Shown one piece after another: positions 24,501 to 41,664 of a DNA stretch of 64,000 nucleotides. Every line of letters starts with the position of its first letter. The stretch's first letter is position 1. Source of the stretch: a virus; the IMG/VR virus record IMGVR_UViG_3300044904_000300, positions 71,822 to 135,821 of that record. The stretch is one strand, 5' to 3'. The position numbers were made by a program, and so were the translations under genes. The notes below the pieces were generated by a model. That model was given only the letters and a program-made list of their open reading frames with translations. It made no database searches and was not told where the DNA came from.

Positions 24501-25865
24501 ATGGCAGACCAGATGTTTCTGACCGAAGAAGTGAAGCAGAAGTGGGCACCGGTGATCGATCACCCTGACATCCCGGCGATCAAAGAGAGCTGGAAGAAGA
24601 AAGTAACCACGATTCTGCTTGAGAATACCGCGCGTGAACTAAAAAATCAGCCGCGGGTCATCACAGAAGACGTGCCGGCAAACTACTCCGGTGCGTTCCC
24701 ACGGGCGTCGGTCCTCACTGGGTTCGACCCCATCCTCATTTCGCTCATTCGTCGTTCTATGCCGAATCTGATTGCGTATGACATCTGCGGCGTCCAGCCG
24801 ATGACTGGTCCTACGGGTCTTATCTTCGCGTTGAAGTCGAACTACTCCACACAGGGTGGTAACGAAGCTCTCTACTACGAAGCCAACACAGACTTCTCAG
24901 CAGCGAACCTATCGGGAACCCAGGTGGGCGACAACCCGGCGGCAAACGCGGCGACCGGCGCTATCGCAGCCAATAGTGATTACTACTACTCGACGGGTAT
25001 GACCACGCTACAGGGCGAAGGCCTTGGGCCACGGTTGTCCCACGTCTACGCGAACGGCACGATCAACGCGAACGTAGCAAGTATTCCCGAAATGGCGTTC
25101 GAGATCGACAAGGTTACAGTCACAGCGGTGACTCGTAAGCTCAAGGCTGAATACACCATCGAGATCGCGCAGGACTTGAAGGCAATCCACGGACTCGACG
25201 CAGAGACCGAACTTGCTAACATCCTCTCGGCTGAAATCCTCGCGGAGATCAACCGTGAAATCGTGCGGACGGTGTATTGGAGTTCGGTCCCAGGTGCTCA
25301 GAACAACACCGGATCGGCCGGCATCTTCAACCTCGACACCGACAGCGATGGACGCTGGATGGTGGAGCGGTTCAAGGGTATGTTCTTCCAGATTGAGCGT
25401 GAAGCCAACGCTATCGCAAAGAGAACCCGTCGGGGCAAGGGGAACATCATCCTCTGCTCGTCAGATACGGCAAGTGCTCTCGCGGCAGCAGACATCCTCC
25501 ACTACCAGAGCGCGTATGACGCTAACCTGCAGGTGGACGACATGGGCAGCACGTTCGCTGGAACGCTACAGGGACGTTACAAGGTCTACATCGACCCGTA
25601 TGCTCCTGTCAGCGCGTATCAGTATTTCGTCGTTGGATTCCGTGGCGCATCGCCGTATGACGCAGGACTGTTCTACTGCCCATATGTTCCGCTCCAGATG
25701 CTTCGCGCACAGGACCCGAACAGCTTCCAGCCGAAGATCGGATTCCAGACTCGTTACGGAGTGGTCGCAAACCCATTCAGCAACTACGCTGGAACCAGCA
25801 ACGGCGCGATTGTGTTCGCGGCAAACGAATACTACCGCAAGGTGCTCGTTACCAACTTGATGTAA
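24501..25865 (+). CDS. g23: Major capsid protein gp23
   Basis: LIRRSMPNLIAYDICGVQPMTGPTGLIFA, IAQDLKAIHGLDAETELANILS.EI..EINRE, FQPKIGF.TRYG. Confidence 0.98.
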   Translation: MADQMFLTEEVKQKWAPVIDHPDIPAIKESWKKKVTTILLENTARELKNQPRVITEDVPANYSGAFPRASVLTGFDPILISLIRRSMPNLIAYDICGVQPMTGPTGLIFALKSNYSTQGGNEALYYEANTDFSAANLSGTQVGDNPAANAATGAIAANSDYYYSTGMTTLQGEGLGPRLSHVYANGTINANVASIPEMAFEIDKVTVTAVTRKLKAEYTIEIAQDLKAIHGLDAETELANILSAEILAEINREIVRTVYWSSVPGAQNNTGSAGIFNLDTDSDGRWMVERFKGMFFQIEREANAIAKRTRRGKGNIILCSSDTASALAAADILHYQSAYDANLQVDDMGSTFAGTLQGRYKVYIDPYAPVSAYQYFVVGFRGASPYDAGLFYCPYVPLQMLRAQDPNSFQPKIGFQTRYGVVANPFSNYAGTSNGAIVFAANEYYRKVLVTNLM

Positions 25866-33937: not shown

Positions 33938-34474
33938 TTGGCAAAGACTCCTACCCATTACGTTGATAACGCTCGCTTCTTGGCTGAGATCAAAGCCTAT
34001 CGAGCTGCGTGCATAAAGGCGAAACGCACCAAAACTCCCTCACCACAGATACCGGAATACATCGGTAAGTGCTTTCTGGATATTGCGACTCACCTCAGTT
34101 ACAAGCCGAACTTCGTGGCCTACACCTACCGAGAGGACATGATTTCGGATGGGATCGAGAACTGCCTGGTCTACTTCCACAACTTTGATCCCGACAAGTC
34201 GAGCAATCCCTTTGGATACTTTACCCAAATCATTTACTATGCGTTCATTCGCCGGATTCAAAAGGAACGCAAGCACACCTATATCAAGTATAAGTGCTTG
34301 GAGCAGTCGGTGATTGATGGTGGAGCGCATACAGATTCGCCAAATGGCGCACATATCCCCGCTGACACGACGATGTTGGAGTTTGATAATGTGAAAGACT
34401 TCATCCGCCGGTTTGATGATTACACCGCTGGACGAAAAGAGCGCAGGAAACAGGCGAAAGTCGAAAAAGCATGA
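33938..34474 (+). CDS. g55: Late transcription sigma factor gp55
   Basis: HYVDN..FL, IA..LS.KPNF..YTYREDMISDGIENC, FDP.KS.NPF.YFTQI.YYAF.RRI.KE. Confidence 0.96.
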   Translation: MAKTPTHYVDNARFLAEIKAYRAACIKAKRTKTPSPQIPEYIGKCFLDIATHLSYKPNFVAYTYREDMISDGIENCLVYFHNFDPDKSSNPFGYFTQIIYYAFIRRIQKERKHTYIKYKCLEQSVIDGGAHTDSPNGAHIPADTTMLEFDNVKDFIRRFDDYTAGRKERRKQAKVEKA

Positions 34475-36657
34475 ATGTAATGTTGAAACAAGGTGATTGC
34501 CGCACCCTCTTGAAAGAACTTCCGGAGAACAGCGTTGATAGCGTGGTGACAGACCCACCGTATGAACTATCGAATGACGGAAAGGCAAGCGCCAGTCGGG
34601 TCTTCCTTGAAATGATGTTCCCACAAAATGCGAATATCAAAACCGAGTTGTCTGGCGAGGACTATCTTTCGTTCCTCGTACAGAAGGTTCTTTGTTTGAG
34701 TGGTATCACTGGGTTCCCAACTCCAGCGACCACCGTGCCAATAAGTTCCATGACATTCAATGGCAAGTCGCCGTTGGGGAATAAGGATGTCGAACACGCA
34801 AGCATAAGTGCCGTCGGTGTTTCGGATGGGGAAACTAGTGTTGATATCGGCCCCGAGGGAACGGAATACCTCGGCTGCTTTATGTTCAAACTTGCTAACA
34901 CGACTGCCGCACTCCAAGCGTTGAATAGCATTGGCACGGGCTTTGATGCGGGCGGCATCGGGGTAGGGTTTGGTATTACGACGACGAGTTACCCAGGCTT
35001 TCTTCATAGCCTCACTTCGGTTGATATCGGAGACCATAACATAGGGTCGTTCAACAATGCGTTTTCTCAACTGATAAGCACATTTGGCCGAGCAGAATAT
35101 TTGTCCGTGCCGCGCTTTAGTGCCGGCGGGGGAACGGTAGAACATTTCTCCACATACGGGGCATTGGTATTGCTTGCCCTTCTCAAGCAAACCGGCTCGC
35201 AAGTGGTAAGAACATTGGCGGGAACACGTCGTTTGCCGGCCATGTTTGAGCCTCGTCATATTTGCGTAGTAGATGATATCACAAACAGGGCAGTGTCGTT
35301 CGACATCATTGTTCATAACCAGTATTTAGCATCCACTGGGTTTATGTCTAAAGGCTGGGACGGCTCCAAAATCGCCTATGATGTCTTGATGTGGGCAGAG
35401 GTGCTCCGAGTGCTCAAACCGGGCGGACACATGCTCGCTTTTGGGGGCACTCGCACACATCATCGGATGACCTGTGCGATAGAAGATGCGGGGTTTGAAA
35501 TACGAGATGAACTGGACTGGATCTATGCGTCCGGGTTCCCCAAGTCTCTGAATGTCTCAAAGGTCATCGATAAGCAAGCGGGACATACCCGCGCATCATC
35601 CTCTGTGCCGAACATGAAGAACAAGGTGTATGGCAAAGGTATGGGCGGGGGTGAATGGAATGCGCCGAGCGAACCTGCTGTGACTGACGCAGCCAAGCAG
35701 TGGGAGGGGTGGGGCACAGCACTCAAACCAGCACGAGAGCCCATCGTCCTCGCACGAAAGCCTATGAGTGTTTCTATTGCGAAGAACATACAGGAACATG
35801 GGACGGGTGCGATCAACATCGATGCGACTCGTATTGGTGGGAACCCGGGATACAAATATGCTGCGGACCGCAACGGGACGACCTTTCATGGAGAACAGGG
35901 CGAACGAATCAAGCAGACAGCGGAGAAAAAGGGCTCGGAGTTTATTGAATCCTCAAAGGGACGCTGGCCCGCAAATGTGCTGCTCTCACATTCACCTGAT
36001 TGTGTGTGCGTTGGATCGCATGTTGAACCTGGCTATGTCATCAATCGGTGGGACGATGGCTCGAAACCCTTTGGAGACGGCGCGGGGCATCCATTTACAT
36101 CGGAGCAACAGCCTGATGAGGTCATCGAAGAATGGCGTTGCACACCAGACTGCCCGGTGCGTCAGTTGAACGAACAGAGCGGTGACCGGCCAGGTTTTGT
36201 ATCTAATGGAAACGCTACAGTTGGTGAAACGTCTGATGGTGTCACTCCGTTTCGCCGCGGAACGGGTGGTATATGGCATGAAGGAAATGGTATCCCTTGT
36301 GGGCCGCAATATAGTGATAACGGCGGAGCAGCGCGGTTCTTCTACGTCGCTAAGCCCTCTAGAGCAGAGCGAGAGGCCGGATGCGAACACTTGCCGGTCA
36401 AGACCACACCAGAGACCGTGGGACGGGACCCCAATAGTGCTGGAGTACGCAGCCCCCGTGCAGGTGCTGGGCGCGGAGCCGGCACACCACTCTTGCGTTG
36501 TACCGTGTGTGGATGCGACGGAGGCGGAGGACGTTATGTGTCGCAGTGTGTGGACGGGGGTTCGCATCGTTTTGAAGCGGCAACTTATGTGATGAAACCA
36601 GATACACCACCAGAAATAGTGGCACAAATACAAGCACTATTAGGGCAAACTCTCTAA
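34471..36657 (+). CDS. Beta-class amino-DNA methyltransferase N-fragment with 256-aa in-frame insert
   Basis: GDC..LLKELPENSVDSVVTDPPYEL [insert 34570-35337] GFMSKGWD, RVLKPGGH, WIYASGFPKS, GRWPAN, AARFFY.AK. Confidence 0.88.
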   Translation: MNVMLKQGDCRTLLKELPENSVDSVVTDPPYELSNDGKASASRVFLEMMFPQNANIKTELSGEDYLSFLVQKVLCLSGITGFPTPATTVPISSMTFNGKSPLGNKDVEHASISAVGVSDGETSVDIGPEGTEYLGCFMFKLANTTAALQALNSIGTGFDAGGIGVGFGITTTSYPGFLHSLTSVDIGDHNIGSFNNAFSQLISTFGRAEYLSVPRFSAGGGTVEHFSTYGALVLLALLKQTGSQVVRTLAGTRRLPAMFEPRHICVVDDITNRAVSFDIIVHNQYLASTGFMSKGWDGSKIAYDVLMWAEVLRVLKPGGHMLAFGGTRTHHRMTCAIEDAGFEIRDELDWIYASGFPKSLNVSKVIDKQAGHTRASSSVPNMKNKVYGKGMGGGEWNAPSEPAVTDAAKQWEGWGTALKPAREPIVLARKPMSVSIAKNIQEHGTGAINIDATRIGGNPGYKYAADRNGTTFHGEQGERIKQTAEKKGSEFIESSKGRWPANVLLSHSPDCVCVGSHVEPGYVINRWDDGSKPFGDGAGHPFTSEQQPDEVIEEWRCTPDCPVRQLNEQSGDRPGFVSNGNATVGETSDGVTPFRRGTGGIWHEGNGIPCGPQYSDNGGAARFFYVAKPSRAEREAGCEHLPVKTTPETVGRDPNSAGVRSPRAGAGRGAGTPLLRCTVCGCDGGGGRYVSQCVDGGSHRFEAATYVMKPDTPPEIVAQIQALLGQTL
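34567..35316 (-). CDS. Vsr/DUF559-like endonuclease with N-terminal Zn fingers, nested antisense inside the methyltransferase
   Basis: CPVC..CS..C repeats; SKFE....E, FDILIP...LAIECHG.YWHG; own TAAATA on the minus strand (35323-35328). Confidence 0.85.
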   Translation of the reverse strand: MNNDVERHCPVCDIIYYANMTRLKHGRQTTCSRQCSYHLRAGLLEKGKQYQCPVCGEMFYRSPAGTKARHGQIFCSAKCAYQLRKRIVERPYVMVSDINRSEAMKKAWVTRRRNTKPYPDAARIKARANAIQRLECGSRVSKFEHKAAEVFRSLGADINTSFPIRNTDGTYACVFDILIPQRRLAIECHGTYWHGGRWSWEPSDTTQTKNLLYEERKIVLARQLGFDIRILWEHHFKEDPTGACLSVIR

Positions 36658-36673
36658 TACCCTAAATAGATGT

Positions 36674-37375
36674 ATGCACACACAAACTTGTCTTGCTTGT
36701 GGAACGACCTTTACTCGGGCCTATCGCCGAAAATACTGTTCACACCGGTGTTATGCGACAAGTCCTAAACCACTGCGAAGAACGGCGCAAAGTGTGGTAT
36801 GTGCTCAATGTGGGAATAAACTAACTCGGGTTCCGTCACGCATCCAAAAAACTGCGAACCAGTTTTGTGATAAGACCTGCTATGATACTTACCAAAGCCG
36901 GTATAAGGACACCTTTACTTGTAAGACCTGTGGGGATGTGTTCGAGCGGAGCCCATCACGCAAAAAGACCAATAGCGTAAAATATTGTTCGATTGCGTGC
37001 CGCACTGCGGACCCCGAATGGGTGTTGAGTGCGTGTATTCGTGGCAACGAAGTGCAGCAGCATAAAGTGGGGCCAAACAAGTTAGAACTGGCCGGGCGGA
37101 GTATTCTTACAGAGTTGGGCTGTGAGTTTAGAGAACAGGTGCTCCTATGTGAGAAGTTTTTGGTTGATGTGCTACTTCCTACAAACATCATTGTGCAGTG
37201 GGATGGAATATACTGGCACACAGAACCGAGGCGGGCTGCGTTAGACCGCTCACAAGATGCCTACCTGAAGAAATGTGGATATCAGGTGTTGCGTTTTACT
37301 GACGACCAAGTGTATAATGAAAGAGAGTTTGTCCGTGATACTATCGCAGGAACAATACAACAAACTGCCAAGTGA
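36674..37375 (+). CDS. Vsr/DUF559-like endonuclease with Zn-finger repeats splitting the methyltransferase
   Basis: C..CG..F...YCS..C repeats; NKLE, VDVLL....IVQWDG.YWH, D.YL...GY.VLRF; TAAATA at 36663. Confidence 0.85.
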   Translation: MHTQTCLACGTTFTRAYRRKYCSHRCYATSPKPLRRTAQSVVCAQCGNKLTRVPSRIQKTANQFCDKTCYDTYQSRYKDTFTCKTCGDVFERSPSRKKTNSVKYCSIACRTADPEWVLSACIRGNEVQQHKVGPNKLELAGRSILTELGCEFREQVLLCEKFLVDVLLPTNIIVQWDGIYWHTEPRRAALDRSQDAYLKKCGYQVLRFTDDQVYNEREFVRDTIAGTIQQTAK

Positions 37376-37701
37376 GTTGCAGTCCTATTTTGAAGCGGAG
37401 GTTGGGGTGGGAGTGCATAACTTCCACCCCACTTGAAGCCGTAAAACCCATTTTATTGATGCGCTATCTCTGCCTACTCGTGACACCTCCAGGCGGCATC
37501 GTGCTCGATCCCTTTATGGGTTCCGGCACAACGGGGTGTGGAGCGGTGCAAGAGGGGTTCAGGTTCATCGGGTTTGACTTGGAAGCGGAGCATGTCGAGA
37601 TTGCTAAGGCGCGTATCGCCTATTGGACGACGCACAAGCATAAGATCGACACGCCTCTTGCGAAAGCCCTTGACACGCGCAAAGACGCCGTGTTATTCTA
37701 A
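37372..37701 (+). CDS. Methyltransferase C-fragment (motif I, SAM binding)
   Basis: VKP..LMRYLC.LVTPPGG.VLDPFMGSGTTG; the conserved HPT preceding VKP lies in a different frame. Confidence 0.85.
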   Translation: MSCSPILKRRLGWECITSTPLEAVKPILLMRYLCLLVTPPGGIVLDPFMGSGTTGCGAVQEGFRFIGFDLEAEHVEIAKARIAYWTTHKHKIDTPLAKALDTRKDAVLF

Positions 37702-37748
37702 TAGGCGCACAATATGATGTGTGGTGTTGATGTATACTAAATACTCGT

Positions 37749-38279
37749 ATGGGACATTTTATAGACCTGACAGGACAGATATTTGGTCGTTTGATAGTAA
37801 TTCGTAGAACGCCCAATAAGAAAACCACTACTATGTGGGAATGCTTATGTGAATGCGGCAATACTACGGTTGTTGATGCCTCGGCGCTTCGGAGTGGCAA
37901 TACTCGTAGTTGCGGGTGTCTTCATAACGAACAGGCTGCAAAAAACATCGCTCGTGCGGACCTTGTTCGTAAACCAGCCGCATATTACCGGTATGTTGAA
38001 CCGAAAAGCGGATATGTAAGAGTTGGTAATGTTGAATATCCGGGCTCGAAGCCCTTTCCTAATTCCGCATACGAGCATAGAGTTATAATGGCACGTCATT
38101 TAGGACGACCATTGCGGAAAGGTGAAACGGTGCATCATTTGAATGGGAATAGACAAGACAACCGCAATGAAAATCTTGAGCTTTGGTTGAAAACACAGCC
38201 CTCTGGGCAGCGTCTTCAAGACGTGCTATCTCATGCGGAACATCTATTACGAGCATATAGACCGGAGTTGTTTAAGTGA
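37749..38279 (+). CDS. HNH homing endonuclease
   Basis: DLTGQ.FGRL.V, W.C.CECG, SCGC, YEHR..M..HLGRPL...E.VHH.NG...DNR..NLEL; TAAATA at 37738. Confidence 0.88.
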
Positions 38280-39373
38280 AGGTAGGCATTTTTTCTGATA
38301 CTCACCATGGAGCCCGTAACGATTCTGGCGTCATGCAATTGTCAATGCGAAAGTTCTATGAGCATATTGTTTTTCCAACACTCAAAGAACAAGGCATTAC
38401 TCGTGTTATTCACGCCGGAGATTTTTGTGATAGACGAAAATACATCAACGGAAACACCGCAAGGTTTATAAACGATGTATACGATGCCCCTATGCAAGAA
38501 TTGGGAATATCTCAAGATATCTTATTGGGCAACCACGATATTTACTATCGTTCTTCAACAGAAGTGAGTTTGGTGGAAGACCTCTACCGGCATGTGACGG
38601 ACCGAGTGCATGTGCATTCGCAACCCACGGAAATTAATATCGCCGGGTGCGACATTCTTCTGCTGCCGTGGATAACAGATAACAATAGGGTAGCATCGAT
38701 GCGGCACATCGAAGATAGTAAATGCTCTATTGTTATCGGACACTTAGAAATTGCTGGCTTTCAGATGTATCGTGGGCTTTCAACAAATGAAGGAATGCCC
38801 GCATCATTATTTGATAGATTTGAATTGGTGATGTCAGGTCATTATCATCATAAATCACAGCAAGGCCCCATTTTCTACCTTGGTTCGATGTTTCCGATGA
38901 TTTGGAGTGACTATCAGGACCCCCGAGGGTTCCATTTGTTTGATACCGAGACACACGAACTGACCTATATCGAAAATCCGTATTCACTCTTCGTCAAGAT
39001 TCTCTATGATGACGCGGGACAGAAGCACGACTACATCAAGAAGCTCGCGCAGGCCATTCTCGCGCCGGACTCACCCTACCACGATGCGTATATCAAGGTG
39101 ATTGTGAAAAGCCGCGAACAACCGTATTGGTTTGATGTGCTTCTCGATTGCCTTTATAAAGTGAATGTGCAGGATGTGCTGGTAATAGACGACATCATCG
39201 TGGATGATGCGGACGAAACGGATAGCACCAACATTCCCGACTTGGATACGCTGACGCTCATGAAGGACTATATCGACACGCTTTCGATTTCGTGCGATAA
39301 GGATGCGTTGTTTGCGTATCTGCGTGAGAAATACCAGGATGCAGTAGCGGCAACCCAAGATGGACGCCTGTAA
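38276..39373 (+). CDS. g47: Recombination nuclease gp47 (Mre11/SbcD-like)
   Basis: DTHHG, GDF.D.RK, LGNHD, GHLE, SGHYH, YLGS. Confidence 0.93.
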
Positions 39374-39430
39374 ATACTCTAATGTAGAACCATAGATGTA
39401 TTATAAATACAGGTGTTCATAGGAGGTGTT

Positions 39431-39958
39431 ATGCCGTTCAAAGTGGCTATTGACTTGACCGGTCGTAAGGTTGGAAAGCTCGTCGTTCTTGCCCGAGCCG
39501 GAAAGAATAAATGGGGGCATCAGTTATGGGAGTGTGAATGCGAATGTGGTGCGCGATATGTTACTTCCGCAACACATTTGGCAACAGAAAAAGTAAAAAG
39601 TTGTGGATGCCAGTTACGAGCATCAGCGCGGGCCCGCCGGGGCGAAAAACACCCCCGATGGAAAGGCGGCCGCCGCGAAGATAAGAATGGGTACATCACT
39701 ATTCGTTGTTATGATTATCCGGGCGCAACAGGTTCGGTTTCGGTTTATGAGCATCAAGCAGTTATGGCGAAACATTTGGGCCGGCCTATTATGATAGACG
39801 AATCAATACATCACCGAAATGGAATCCGTAACGATAATAGGCTCGAAAATTTGGAGCTTCGTGTTTCGTATCACGGGCAGGGACAAACAATCGATGACGC
39901 CATCGCTTTAGCCCAGAGTATCCTGCGCCGTTATGCTCCGCACACATTAGTATGCTAA
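39431..39958 (+). CDS. HNH homing endonuclease, paralogue of 37749..38279
   Basis: DLTGRK.GKL.V, W.C.CECG, SCGC, YEH..VM..HLGRP, HH.NG.R.DNR.ENLEL; TATAAATA at 39402; AGGAGG RBS. Confidence 0.88.
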   Translation: MPFKVAIDLTGRKVGKLVVLARAGKNKWGHQLWECECECGARYVTSATHLATEKVKSCGCQLRASARARRGEKHPRWKGGRREDKNGYITIRCYDYPGATGSVSVYEHQAVMAKHLGRPIMIDESIHHRNGIRNDNRLENLELRVSYHGQGQTIDDAIALAQSILRRYAPHTLVC

Positions 39959-41664
39959 CCTTTACCCGCATTTCATACAAAAATTTCCTAGCAGCAGGAA
40001 ACTCACCCATCGTAGTTGACCTCAATACTCATCAATCGACCCTTATTGTCGGGCATAATGGAGCGGGGAAATCGACTTTGAGTGAGGCCATCTGTTTCGC
40101 TTTATATGGAAGACCTCTCCGAAATGTGAACAAGCCAAAACTTGTCAATTCGATTAACGGACGAGATTGCTTAGTCGAATTGGATTTCAAGACCAATAGC
40201 GGGGTGTATCGTATCAAGCGCGGTATCAAACCGAACATTTTTGAAATCTACGAGAACGGAACGCTTATACCCTCACCGGCTTCCGCTTTGGACTACCAAA
40301 CATTACTTGAAACTAATATTTTGAACTTGTCATTTCGGGCGTTTCAACAGGTGGTCATTCTTGGGAATACATCATATACTCCATTTATGCGGTTAGCCGC
40401 CGGCGCTCGCCGTGAACTTGTCGAGTCGCTTTTAGATATCGGGATTTTCTCGGCGATGAATGCGTTGACGAAGGACGAACTGACCACGCTGAAGAATGAG
40501 CTTGACAAGTGCATTCAGGCAAAGGGGCTTGTCGGTGAACAGGTCAAGATGGCGCAGAACTTCACGGAGCATCTGGAAGAACAGCGTCAGCAGCAATTGG
40601 CGGTGATTGACACCAACATCGAGCAAGTTAGCAACACCATACTGGAAACGCAATCAGCGATTACAAATCTGGAATCGGACTTACTGGAGTATGATACCGA
40701 TCACAAGGCGTTCACTGGGGCGTTTGAGAAGAAGTCGGACTACGAGCGCAACAGGTTTGCCATACAAGCCAAGCTAAAAGAGTTAGCCAAAGAGCGAGCG
40801 TTCTATGCAACGAATGATATTTGCCCAAAGTGTGAGCAATCTCTGACCGATGACCTGAAACAGGGACGCTATAATACGCTAGACAGTAAAGAAGATGGGG
40901 CGAACAAAGCTCTGGCGCAGTGTGATACGTTGATTGCCAAGTATGGTGGGATCGTCGCAACAGCGAACGCCGAACTTGCAAATGCCAAGACGCTAGAGAA
41001 CCAAATCGCCGCACAGCAGTCTTCGCTTCGCGTGTATGAAACACGGCGAGCAGAGCTTCGCAAAGAACGAGACAAGCTCGAATCGGCGACCGTGAGTACC
41101 CCGCAGGCAGTCGATGCCGAGGATCTCCAACGGCAACTTGGTGAGCTTGTAAAAAAACATGATGACTTGTCGCAAAAGCGTGTTATAATAGATGCTGCTG
41201 GAATGCTCTTGCGGGATAGTGGCATCAAGTCCAAAGTAATACGGCATTACATTCCGATCATCAATCGGACAATCAACGCCTATTTGACTGCGATGGATTT
41301 CCCGATTGCGTTCACGCTGGATGATGAGTTCCAAGAGAAAATCAAGAGCCGTTATCGTGACGACTTTGCGTATGATAGTTTTAGCGAGGGTGAGAAGAAG
41401 CGTATTGACTTGGCGCTCCTCTTGACCTGGCGAGCCGTAGCGCGGTTGAAGAACAGCGCAGCCAGCAACCTCCTGATACTGGATGAAGTGTTTGATGGGT
41501 CGCTAGACGCCAACGGGACAGAAGAGTTCCTGAAGATCATCGCGGGGCTGGAGAAGGATACGCGGGTTTTTGTCATCTCGCATAAAACGGATGTCCTCGT
41601 AGACAAATTTGCTCATACCATTACGTTCCAAAAGAACAGAGGGTTTTCGGAGATCAAAATCTAA
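39952..41664 (+). CDS. g46: Recombination ATPase gp46 (Rad50/SbcC-like)
   Basis: [13 protein letters not shown] hook, [28 protein letters not shown]. Confidence 0.95.

Follow-up and report, generated by a model that had tools for sequence, protein, structure and literature searches.

Can a DNA methyltransferase still be made from a gene whose invariant HPTVKP motif is cut by seven nucleotides that begin with a stop codon? The question arises in a 64,000-nucleotide stretch of DNA, referred to here as the window (positions 71,822 to 135,821 of IMG/VR record IMGVR_UViG_3300044904_000300, a 135.8-kb T4-like virus record), in which a beta-class N6/N4 DNA methyltransferase (methylase) gene of family PF01555 lies in several pieces across 34471-37701. 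From ATG 37317 one frame (frame A) reads MKESLSVILSQEQYNKLPSELQSYFEAEVGVGVHNFHPT, a 39-aa peptide that passes through the codons GTG CAT AAC TTC CAC CCC ACT at 37413-37433 and ends at TGA 37434-36, and a second frame (frame B) begins GTA AAA CCC ATT at 37441. An initial annotation of this DNA had placed exactly 7 nt (TGAAGCC, 37434-37440) between HPT and VKP, and this is borne out both by the letters themselves and by relatives that run intact across the site, namely P0002, which is 86% identical to the C part of the window (...GVHNFHPTVKPITLMRYL, containing GVHNFHPTVKP), and 79 others. We propose that a homing-endonuclease cassette splits the methylase, adds a tail and a head peptide to the resulting halves, and carries a short stop-hop in which peptidyl-tRNA-Thr would pass over the stop codon, making it an analogue of T4 mobA/gene 60; from the comparisons below we give this reading a probability of roughly 0.6.

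The pieces and signals of the site, all on the plus strand, are listed here with the evidence for each in brackets.

34471-36600 (+): methylase N-terminal fragment (Pfam PF01555; tblastn with the intact Jinkies, Eyeball and vir555 methylases)
36601-36657 (+): C-terminal extension (CTE) of the N fragment, DTPPEIVAQIQALLGQTL, then a stop (no alignment to intact methylases)
36674-37375 (+): homing-endonuclease gene, 233 aa, Vsr/DUF559-type, with N-terminal zinc-ribbon repeats (Pfam DUF559 8.5e-10, plus MTES_1575)
37317-37412 (+): start of the C fragment (ATG 37317) and N-terminal extension (NTE) in frame A, MKESLSVILSQEQYNKLPSELQSYFEAEVGVG (peptide conserved in other cassettes)
37397-37401 (+): Shine-Dalgarno-like GGAGG just 5' of the hairpin (enriched in gap alleles relative to intact alleles)
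37404-37430 (+): 11-bp hairpin with 5' arm 37404-14, loop GCATA 37415-19 and 3' arm 37420-30 (folding, covariation)
37413-37433 (+): methylase-derived VHNFHPT codons in frame A, the last of which, ACT 37431-33, is the proposed Thr take-off codon (comparison with P0002)
37434-37440 (+): 7-nt coding gap TGAAGCC, consisting of the stop TGA 37434-36, a variable A 37437 and the proposed landing codon GCC 37438-40
37441-37701 (+): C-terminal methylase part in frame B, VKPILLMRYLCLLVTPPGGIVLDPFMGSGTT... (S-adenosylmethionine (AdoMet)-binding motif I), to its stop (PF01555 9.7e-16; CcrM 6PBD 3e-12)

The intact phage methylases of Jinkies, Eyeball and vir555 match three stretches of this locus, which are the start with its DPPY motif, a long middle part and the AdoMet-binding end, and the arrangement of motifs is that of beta-class PF01555 enzymes, with DPPY towards the N terminus and HPT.KP...DPF.GSGTT towards the C terminus. 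The N fragment has DPPY at its start, is broken at 34567-35316 by an endonuclease gene in antisense orientation, resumes at GFMSKGWDG and ends in a zinc-ribbon insert, ...HRFEAATYVMKP. A boundary at ...GAGRGAG, based on P0002, was dropped because the uninterrupted relative P0020 has the same CxxCxC...C.H..FE insert directly before N.HPTVKP, from which the zinc ribbon emerges as natural variation within the family, with the methylase continuing to ...YVMKP. Beyond it lies the CTE, an 18-residue tail of non-methylase sequence (36601-36654), and a comparable tail (L.DLTPEQVDHVVARL...) terminates the N fragment in loci L009, L010 and L052 and in ShiLan. The NTE overlaps the 3' end of the endonuclease gene and belongs to a type of peptide that is conserved in other cassettes as LS.EQ[YF][ND]KLP.ELQ.[YH]F or MRDF..DEIPADIR.YFEEV. 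A near-identity DNA search of phage records gave no match to the window.

Gap alleles and their homing endonucleases

Scans with DNA patterns over viral, genome and metagenome collections, with clustering at 85% nucleotide identity, gave a gap-bearing set of 76 distinct sequences in 53 clusters, and in all of them the Thr codon of the motif directly precedes the gap and the Val codon directly follows it. As controls we used 79 uninterrupted loci; in the comparisons of structure and Shine-Dalgarno-like sequences, 58 gap alleles were set against 63 distinct intact alleles. The gap is most often 5 nt (25 sequences), 6 nt (13) or 7 nt (about 29 including the window), with a few of 8 nt (5), 9 nt (2) and 13 nt (1), and single clusters at or above 85% nucleotide identity mix these lengths, 5 and 7 nt in one and 6, 7 and 13 nt in another. 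No single frameshift, the +1 shift among the alternatives first considered included, can account for gaps of 5-13 nt that occupy all three frame classes. The TGAAGCC of the window is also found in L043, L069 and L084, and the strict pattern TRAAGCN gave no match in viral contigs. The set includes the cultured mycobacteriophages ShiLan and Harley (L010), and in ShiLan, with the gap TAGAGCC, the locus is annotated as gp65 (methyltransferase), gp66 (hypothetical protein, which is the frame-A peptide ending in HPT) and gp67 (methyltransferase). A number of short C-fragment proteins (P0007, P0008, P0010, P0013, P0038 and P0058) start with ...TP[LP][EK]AVKP, which from the peptides alone is the frame-B reading of HPT, stop and AGCN; the gaps behind P0002-P0010 are accordingly deduced from frame-B peptides, not from their DNA.

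Assembly error and random decay, both raised at the outset, are set aside on the grounds that the arrangement recurs in 76 independent sequences, some of them finished phage genomes, and that both sides of the gap are under purifying selection. A second copy of TTGAAGC, to which the initial annotation had also drawn attention, is indeed present (37390 and 37433) but is not seen in related loci and is probably due to chance. L006 and L213 were rejected as gap alleles, both being chance matches inside intact genes. L076 (109-241) contains two inverted copies of the site 1 nt apart with a C-part open reading frame (ORF) of only 25 aa, and is probably an assembly artefact.

The gap is strongly associated with endonucleases, a point absent from the initial annotation: an endonuclease gene or a remnant of one lies 19-115 nt upstream of the gap at 55 of the 76 gap loci, as against 6 of the 79 intact loci. 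At gap loci these are Vsr-like in the sense orientation (22), Vsr-like in the antisense orientation (21) or of the HNH type (about 10). Homologues of the window endonuclease occur at 43 other gap loci in either orientation, and none of the 6 cases at intact loci is Vsr-like. Loci with the cassette share both the N-fragment tail and the C-fragment head peptide. Some gap loci, such as L057 and L097, have a contiguous N part and no endonuclease, and the C-part ORFs are intact across the 53 clusters even where the endonuclease has decayed or has been lost.

Several further arrangements of endonucleases and methylase were seen. In L007 (1103-1528) and L044 (7475-7861) an HNH ORF occupies the third frame immediately upstream of the hairpin and a 7-nt gap, with the methylase frame open across it, as in the ShiLan domain. 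The endonuclease gene on the minus strand at 34567-35316 of the window is a second Vsr-like one, situated inside the methylase N-terminal part between DPPYEL and GFMSKGWDG, and the methylase frame is again open across it, such that the ORF 34471-36657 comprises 728 aa. In P0039, a C-terminal fragment, a head resembling the NTE of the window (MQIDEAMYNRMPSNLQALFEKLP...) is joined further upstream, before ARFFY, and HPTVKP is uninterrupted; a cassette of this type may split the methylase at another site without a gap.

Signals flanking the gap

In scans made without requiring a stop, a stop codon nonetheless stands right after Thr at every true site but one, and there are no cases of TGG at this position although the pattern permitted it. 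The sole non-stop allele, L214 (4966-5032), has TTA (Leu) after the take-off codon in an 8-nt gap, TTAAAGCC, which resembles the 7-nt TAAAGCC plus one T; in a host rich in GC, TTA could be one of the rare 'hungry' codons.

The other end of the gap is similarly constrained. The codon before Val is purine-pyrimidine-N (R-Y-N) in 74 of the 76 sequences, with G in 45, A in 29 and T in 2 at the first position and C in 70 and T in 6 at the second, and these R-Y bases are the ones to which U36 and G35 in a Thr anticodon can bind through Watson-Crick or G.U pairs. In both exceptions the gap contains such a codon further 5', in frame. The third bases of the take-off and landing codons also tend to fall in the same class (pyrimidine in both, 43; purine in both, 12; pyrimidine then purine, 5; purine then pyrimidine, 1; Fisher p = 4e-8 at cluster level). 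As to the tRNAs available, the phage genome encodes 28 of them outside the window (G000:C1 8785-28324), including all three Thr isoacceptors (CGU, 24592-24665; UGU, 24778-24851; GGU, 25325-25398), and the window itself has none; the GGU isoacceptor would decode the take-off ACU and could pair with GCC.

Upstream of the gap there is a hairpin throughout the family, of 8-12 bp, whose 3' arm consists of the N-x-H-P codons and which ends at the Thr codon or one base before it; in the window the 3' arm codes for N-F-H-P and its last base is the base before the take-off codon. The 11-bp stem with its GCATA loop reported initially is real, as the fold of 37391-37449 has a minimum free energy (MFE) of -28.2 kcal/mol (z = -4.66) that was matched by 0 of 200 shuffled sequences; that it lies 5' of the take-off codon, and not 3' as in T4, had not been recognized. 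Over the 40 nt upstream of the gap the MFE is -18.4 kcal/mol in the 58 gap alleles compared with -5.3 in the 63 intact controls (p = 7e-21), and on average 9.1 of the last ten bases are paired in gap alleles and 3.1 in intact relatives. The stem is maintained by compensatory change: in 22 in-register sequences 92.1% of cells are paired compared with 80.5% after shuffling, the covariation score is 0.39 as against 0.146 (0 of 500 as high), sliding the hairpin partner drops pairing to about 50%, and at variable stem positions there are 3.72 consecutive extra pairs compared with 1.25 +/- 0.17 with permuted partners. Covariation was tested on this in-register subset and by partner permutation in place of RNAalifold, which found no structure on unaligned slices of equal length because the loop lengths differ. 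The stem positions contain 32 G.T pairs and 12 A.C pairs, an excess that points to sense-strand RNA as the molecule that folds. The hairpin is retained with antisense endonucleases and with none, and it is not an intrinsic terminator, having no U-tract after it.

A GGAGG-type core of at least 5 nt stands 5' of the hairpin in 47 of the 58 gap alleles and at the same position in 3 of the 63 intact alleles (p = 4e-19), at a distance of 20-43 nt from the gap. In an extended fold of the window the GGU of GGAGGU pairs with the take-off ACU; we considered such pairing as an 'anticodon mimic' and rejected it as a general rule, as it is predicted only in the window and in about a quarter of the loci. 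At the protein level, P.[ED]L..[YH]F, a possible nascent-peptide signal, is conserved 14-20 residues before the take-off codon in cassette loci; loci such as L057 and L097, whose N part is contiguous, lack it.

Both sides of the gap are under purifying selection, each in its own frame. In pairwise differences an excess of third-position and synonymous change is seen only in frame A upstream of the gap, where synonymous and non-synonymous codon counts are 594:853 (169:1264 and 154:1257 in the other frames), and only in the C frame downstream of it, where they are 21076:20325 (4966:36189 and 2592:34764 in the other frames). Complete C-part ORFs measure 62-144 aa, with the exception of one palindromic artefact contig. 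In 36 of the 76 sequences the C frame contains no ATG, GTG or TTG from its last stop as far as VKP, and the GTG found in the hairpin shows no preference for a frame (28/25/15). Among viral contigs we found no relative with sense codons between HPT and VKP, compared with more than 586 relatives, and it is therefore unlikely that two extra residues, as would arise from a +1 shift or readthrough, are tolerated there.

Proposed stop-hopping and the alternatives

The model that we favour runs as follows. The cassette would have invaded the methylase, splitting it about 8 codons before the HPTVKP motif, supplying the N fragment with a short tail and the C fragment with a new start and a head peptide, and inserting 7 nt (stop + N + GCC) precisely where the Thr codon of the motif meets the Val codon. 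A ribosome starting at ATG 37317 would melt the hairpin and come to have its P site on ACU (Thr) and its A site on UGA, at which termination would be slow; the hairpin would re-zip once its 3' arm exits the ribosome, pulling the mRNA forward, and the upstream GGAGG may assist through pairing with 16S rRNA. The peptidyl-tRNA-Thr would then release ACU and re-pair with GCC 7 nt downstream (G.U, C-G, C-G), and decoding would restart at GUA to give ...NFHPT-VKPILL... with the motif intact and the predicted junction peptide NFHPTVKPILLMR. That the hairpin acts as the forward driver is plausible in view of the mRNA pairing at the ribosome exit that has been proposed as a forward driver in gene 60 (bioRxiv 10.1101/2024.12.09.627546). 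To judge by the analogous T4 mobA/gene 60, the recognition site of the endonuclease itself is probably broken by the insert as well, which may thereby have a role in self-immunity.

A hop by peptidyl-tRNA-Thr from ACN to R-Y-N accounts for every gap length, for the stop and for the pairing rule, and also for HPTVKP being restored exactly. Joining the two frames restores the motif as it stands in P0002 and the 79 intact loci; the take-off codon is followed by a stop (TTA in L214); a pairable landing codon lies directly 5' of the codon at which decoding would resume; and the covarying hairpin is conserved and specific to gap alleles, located 5' of the take-off codon unlike the take-off stem-loop of T4. 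The gene-60-like hop from ACU to GCC over the stop, as suggested in the initial annotation, thus gains support, and the comparative data fit it better than any of the alternatives listed there.

A number of observations weigh against the hop, which is deduced here from sequence alone. Synthetic stop-hops in E. coli are inefficient (PMC5009743). The GCC of the window is an imperfect match to tRNA-Thr and requires a G.U pair at the first position, and in the family as a whole GCN landing codons outnumber perfectly matched ACN, which is not what a pure re-pairing model predicts; five or six third-base combinations are mismatched, for example ACC to ACG. The R-Y-N codons code for T, A, I, V and M, such that a constraint on a translated residue at the protein level could mimic the pairing rule, and the matched codons could stem from the origin of the insert (microhomology) and not from decoding. 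There are in addition features that would suit a separate start of the C part, namely GGAGG-N6-GTG in the C frame of a mycobacteriophage clade including ShiLan and Harley, annotated as the start of gp67, and ATGA or TTGA stop-start overlaps created by some 5-nt gaps, which would give M-T-V-K-P.

These last features belong to an explanation without recoding, in which the frame-A peptide ends at the stop, the AdoMet-binding part is translated separately and the enzyme assembles non-covalently from its pieces. In the window frame B could be entered at GTG 37372 or TTG 37390/37402, or by termination-reinitiation aided by GGAGG and the unfolding of the hairpin. Some C-frame start codon is present in 40 of the 76 sequences, C-fragment ORFs beginning MTVKP... 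are called in public data (P0018, P0061), and split phage enzymes with added tails are known, for example T4 gp39/gp60 and Aeh1 NrdA. We nevertheless regard assembly from pieces as unlikely. About half of the sequences (36 of 76) lack a canonical C-frame start, the hairpin GTG is indifferent to frame, and frame B upstream of the gap has no coding signature, whereas frame A has one up to Thr; the enzyme would have to consist of three pieces, including a peptide of 29-39 aa cut inside a conserved motif, and the immediate stop, the R-Y-N rule and the third-base match would be left unexplained.

Recoding might also take a different form for each frame class, with a +1 shift in the window at ACU-UGA (giving HPT-EA-VKP) or at CCC-A (HP-LEA-VKP), readthrough of the 6- and 9-nt gaps, and a -1 or +2 shift at those of 5 and 8 nt. 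The window gap of 7 nt is 1 mod 3, and its A-site stop, upstream Shine-Dalgarno-like sequence and hairpin are of kinds known to stimulate +1 shifting: an A-site stop and an upstream Shine-Dalgarno sequence do so in prfB, and forward shifts are favoured when a hairpin upstream refolds. R-Y-N could on this reading be due to the residue encoded just before Val, which would be a small one (A, T, V, I or M). We think this quite improbable. One and the same conserved module, even among members of a single 85% cluster, would need three mechanisms; in neither the +1 nor the -1 frame would ACN allow slippery re-pairing; the spacing to the Shine-Dalgarno-like sequence is 20-43 nt, compared with 3 nt in prfB; no natural relative with 1-4 sense codons between HPT and VKP was found among viral contigs; and the match of take-off and landing third bases is unexplained. 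The ACN codon, the distant Shine-Dalgarno-like sequence and the three frame classes likewise led us to reject a prfB-type +1 frameshift as such.

It is also conceivable that the methylase is dead and yields no useful C part, the insert serving only to shield the endonuclease home site and the hairpin and GGAGG serving the endonuclease, through mRNA stability, expression or a structure for DNA recognition. Some phage relatives can do without the methylase (PMC11855218), gaps and endonucleases closely accompany each other, and P0001, the public gene call for the C part of the window, begins only at MRYL. The probability of this too seems to us low, given purifying selection on both sides in the right frames, which also disposes of the decayed gene envisaged at first; C-part ORFs that stay intact in 53 clusters, including loci whose endonuclease is decayed or lost; and a hairpin that is kept with antisense endonucleases or none and, lacking a U-tract, is not a terminator. 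A group I intron was rejected, there being no Rfam match within 34000-38500 at the gathering threshold or at E <= 10 and the tail and head peptides being conserved as protein. An intein or split intein was rejected on account of the stops between the pieces, the absence of splicing blocks and of a Pfam intein domain, a tail that begins with D and a head that ends before VHNF.

Whether the module is more general than this one reading we consider about evenly balanced. It would be a natural and portable 'spring-loaded' stop-hop, composed of a Shine-Dalgarno anchor, a re-zipping hairpin, a stop and a landing codon that can pair with Thr-tRNA, by which 5-13 nt would be skipped with useful efficiency, and with it several unrelated endonuclease families (HNH as well as Vsr-like, the latter in both orientations) would interrupt their own target within an invariant motif and leave the enzyme unharmed.

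The surrounding region of the window is dense with homing endonucleases. Two related free-standing HNH genes (PF13392) on the plus strand, at 37749-38279 and 39413-39958, are situated around a pair of genes for an SbcCD-like nuclease and ATPase (38276-39373 and 39952-41664).

Known bypass systems and implications

The likeness to T4 gene 60 and MobA is considerable. In T4, according to the Manning and Atkins preprint (bioRxiv 10.1101/2022.08.31.505936, with Bonocora et al. 2011 as its reference 19), as in the methylase, a homing endonuclease splits the gene of a conserved phage enzyme and the halves carry CTE and NTE extensions. In both a non-coding insert lies some tens of codons into the downstream half, a stop follows the take-off codon, the landing codon suits the same tRNA, the joined reading restores an invariant motif, and the endonuclease is often decayed or replaced, including by Vsr-like genes. 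The MobA element has been described as an endonuclease with CTE/NTE and a bypass insert that protects the home site, subject to decay or replacement by Vsr-like or GIY-YIG genes, and the same 2022 survey still calls its bypass cassette unique (bioRxiv 10.1101/2022.08.31.505936). The hairpin is 5' of the take-off codon here and 3' of it in T4. The host gene in T4 codes for the large subunit of topoisomerase II and not a DNA methyltransferase; the T4 gap is ~50 nt compared with 5-13 nt; the methylase gap has no take-off stem-loop or mini Shine-Dalgarno inside it, having instead a covarying hairpin that ends at the take-off codon with GGAGG 5' of it; and the tRNA of the proposed methylase hop would be one for Thr, in contrast to Gly or Asp. 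The methylase cassette has no sequence homology to the MobA element and, with PF01555 as host gene, a DUF559/Vsr-like endonuclease and a gap of 7 nt, we regard it as an analogue and not a member.

Other parallels are more partial. In synthetic E. coli stop-hops (Weiss et al. 1987, as described in PMC5009743), peptidyl-tRNA moves from the codon 5' of a stop to a matched codon 3' of it, as proposed here; those hops are low-level, engineered and without stimulators, whereas the methylase module is natural and conserved and has dedicated signals, and the 2016 recoding review knows of no natural in-frame stop-hop (PMC5009743). The byp elements of Magnusiomyces capitatus mitochondria, as cited in PMC5009743 and the Manning and Atkins preprint, are likewise numerous short non-coding inserts that are bypassed, with an A-site codon that is decoded poorly and with landing codons that match those of take-off outright or by wobble, but they measure 27-55 nt, are mitochondrial, occur in many genes and are not tied to endonucleases, unlike the methylase element with its one fixed site in one gene family. 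The ShiLan domain and insertion elements of actinophage methylases (PMC9957025, PMC11855218) concern the same methylase family and partly the same phages, with endonucleases within or beside the gene, and term searches of these two papers turned up no mention of a frameshift, bypass, gp66 or gp67 and no account of an HPT|VKP split, the small gp66 ORF, a gap or a hairpin. A full-text literature search found no prior description of the proposed methylase stop-hop element; as its coverage was incomplete, this amounts to no more than absence of evidence.

For bacteria and phages, what is known of programmed bypassing comes from a single system, namely T4 gene 60 with its homologues. If our reading is true, the methylase element would be a second, independent programmed-bypass family in phages and the first natural stop-hop, and would offer a simpler, unrelated and minimal system in which to consider peptidyl-tRNA release, forward drive on the mRNA and the choice of landing site. 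The 53 clusters of natural variants, with gaps of 5-13 nt and plentiful compensatory changes, are a resource in this respect, and the module occurs in cultured, tractable mycobacteriophages (ShiLan, Harley and other cluster F1 phages), where the methylase is at present annotated as three genes and re-annotation may be needed. The combination of an endonuclease with a self-protecting bypass insert would then be a recurrent evolutionary solution and not a one-off.

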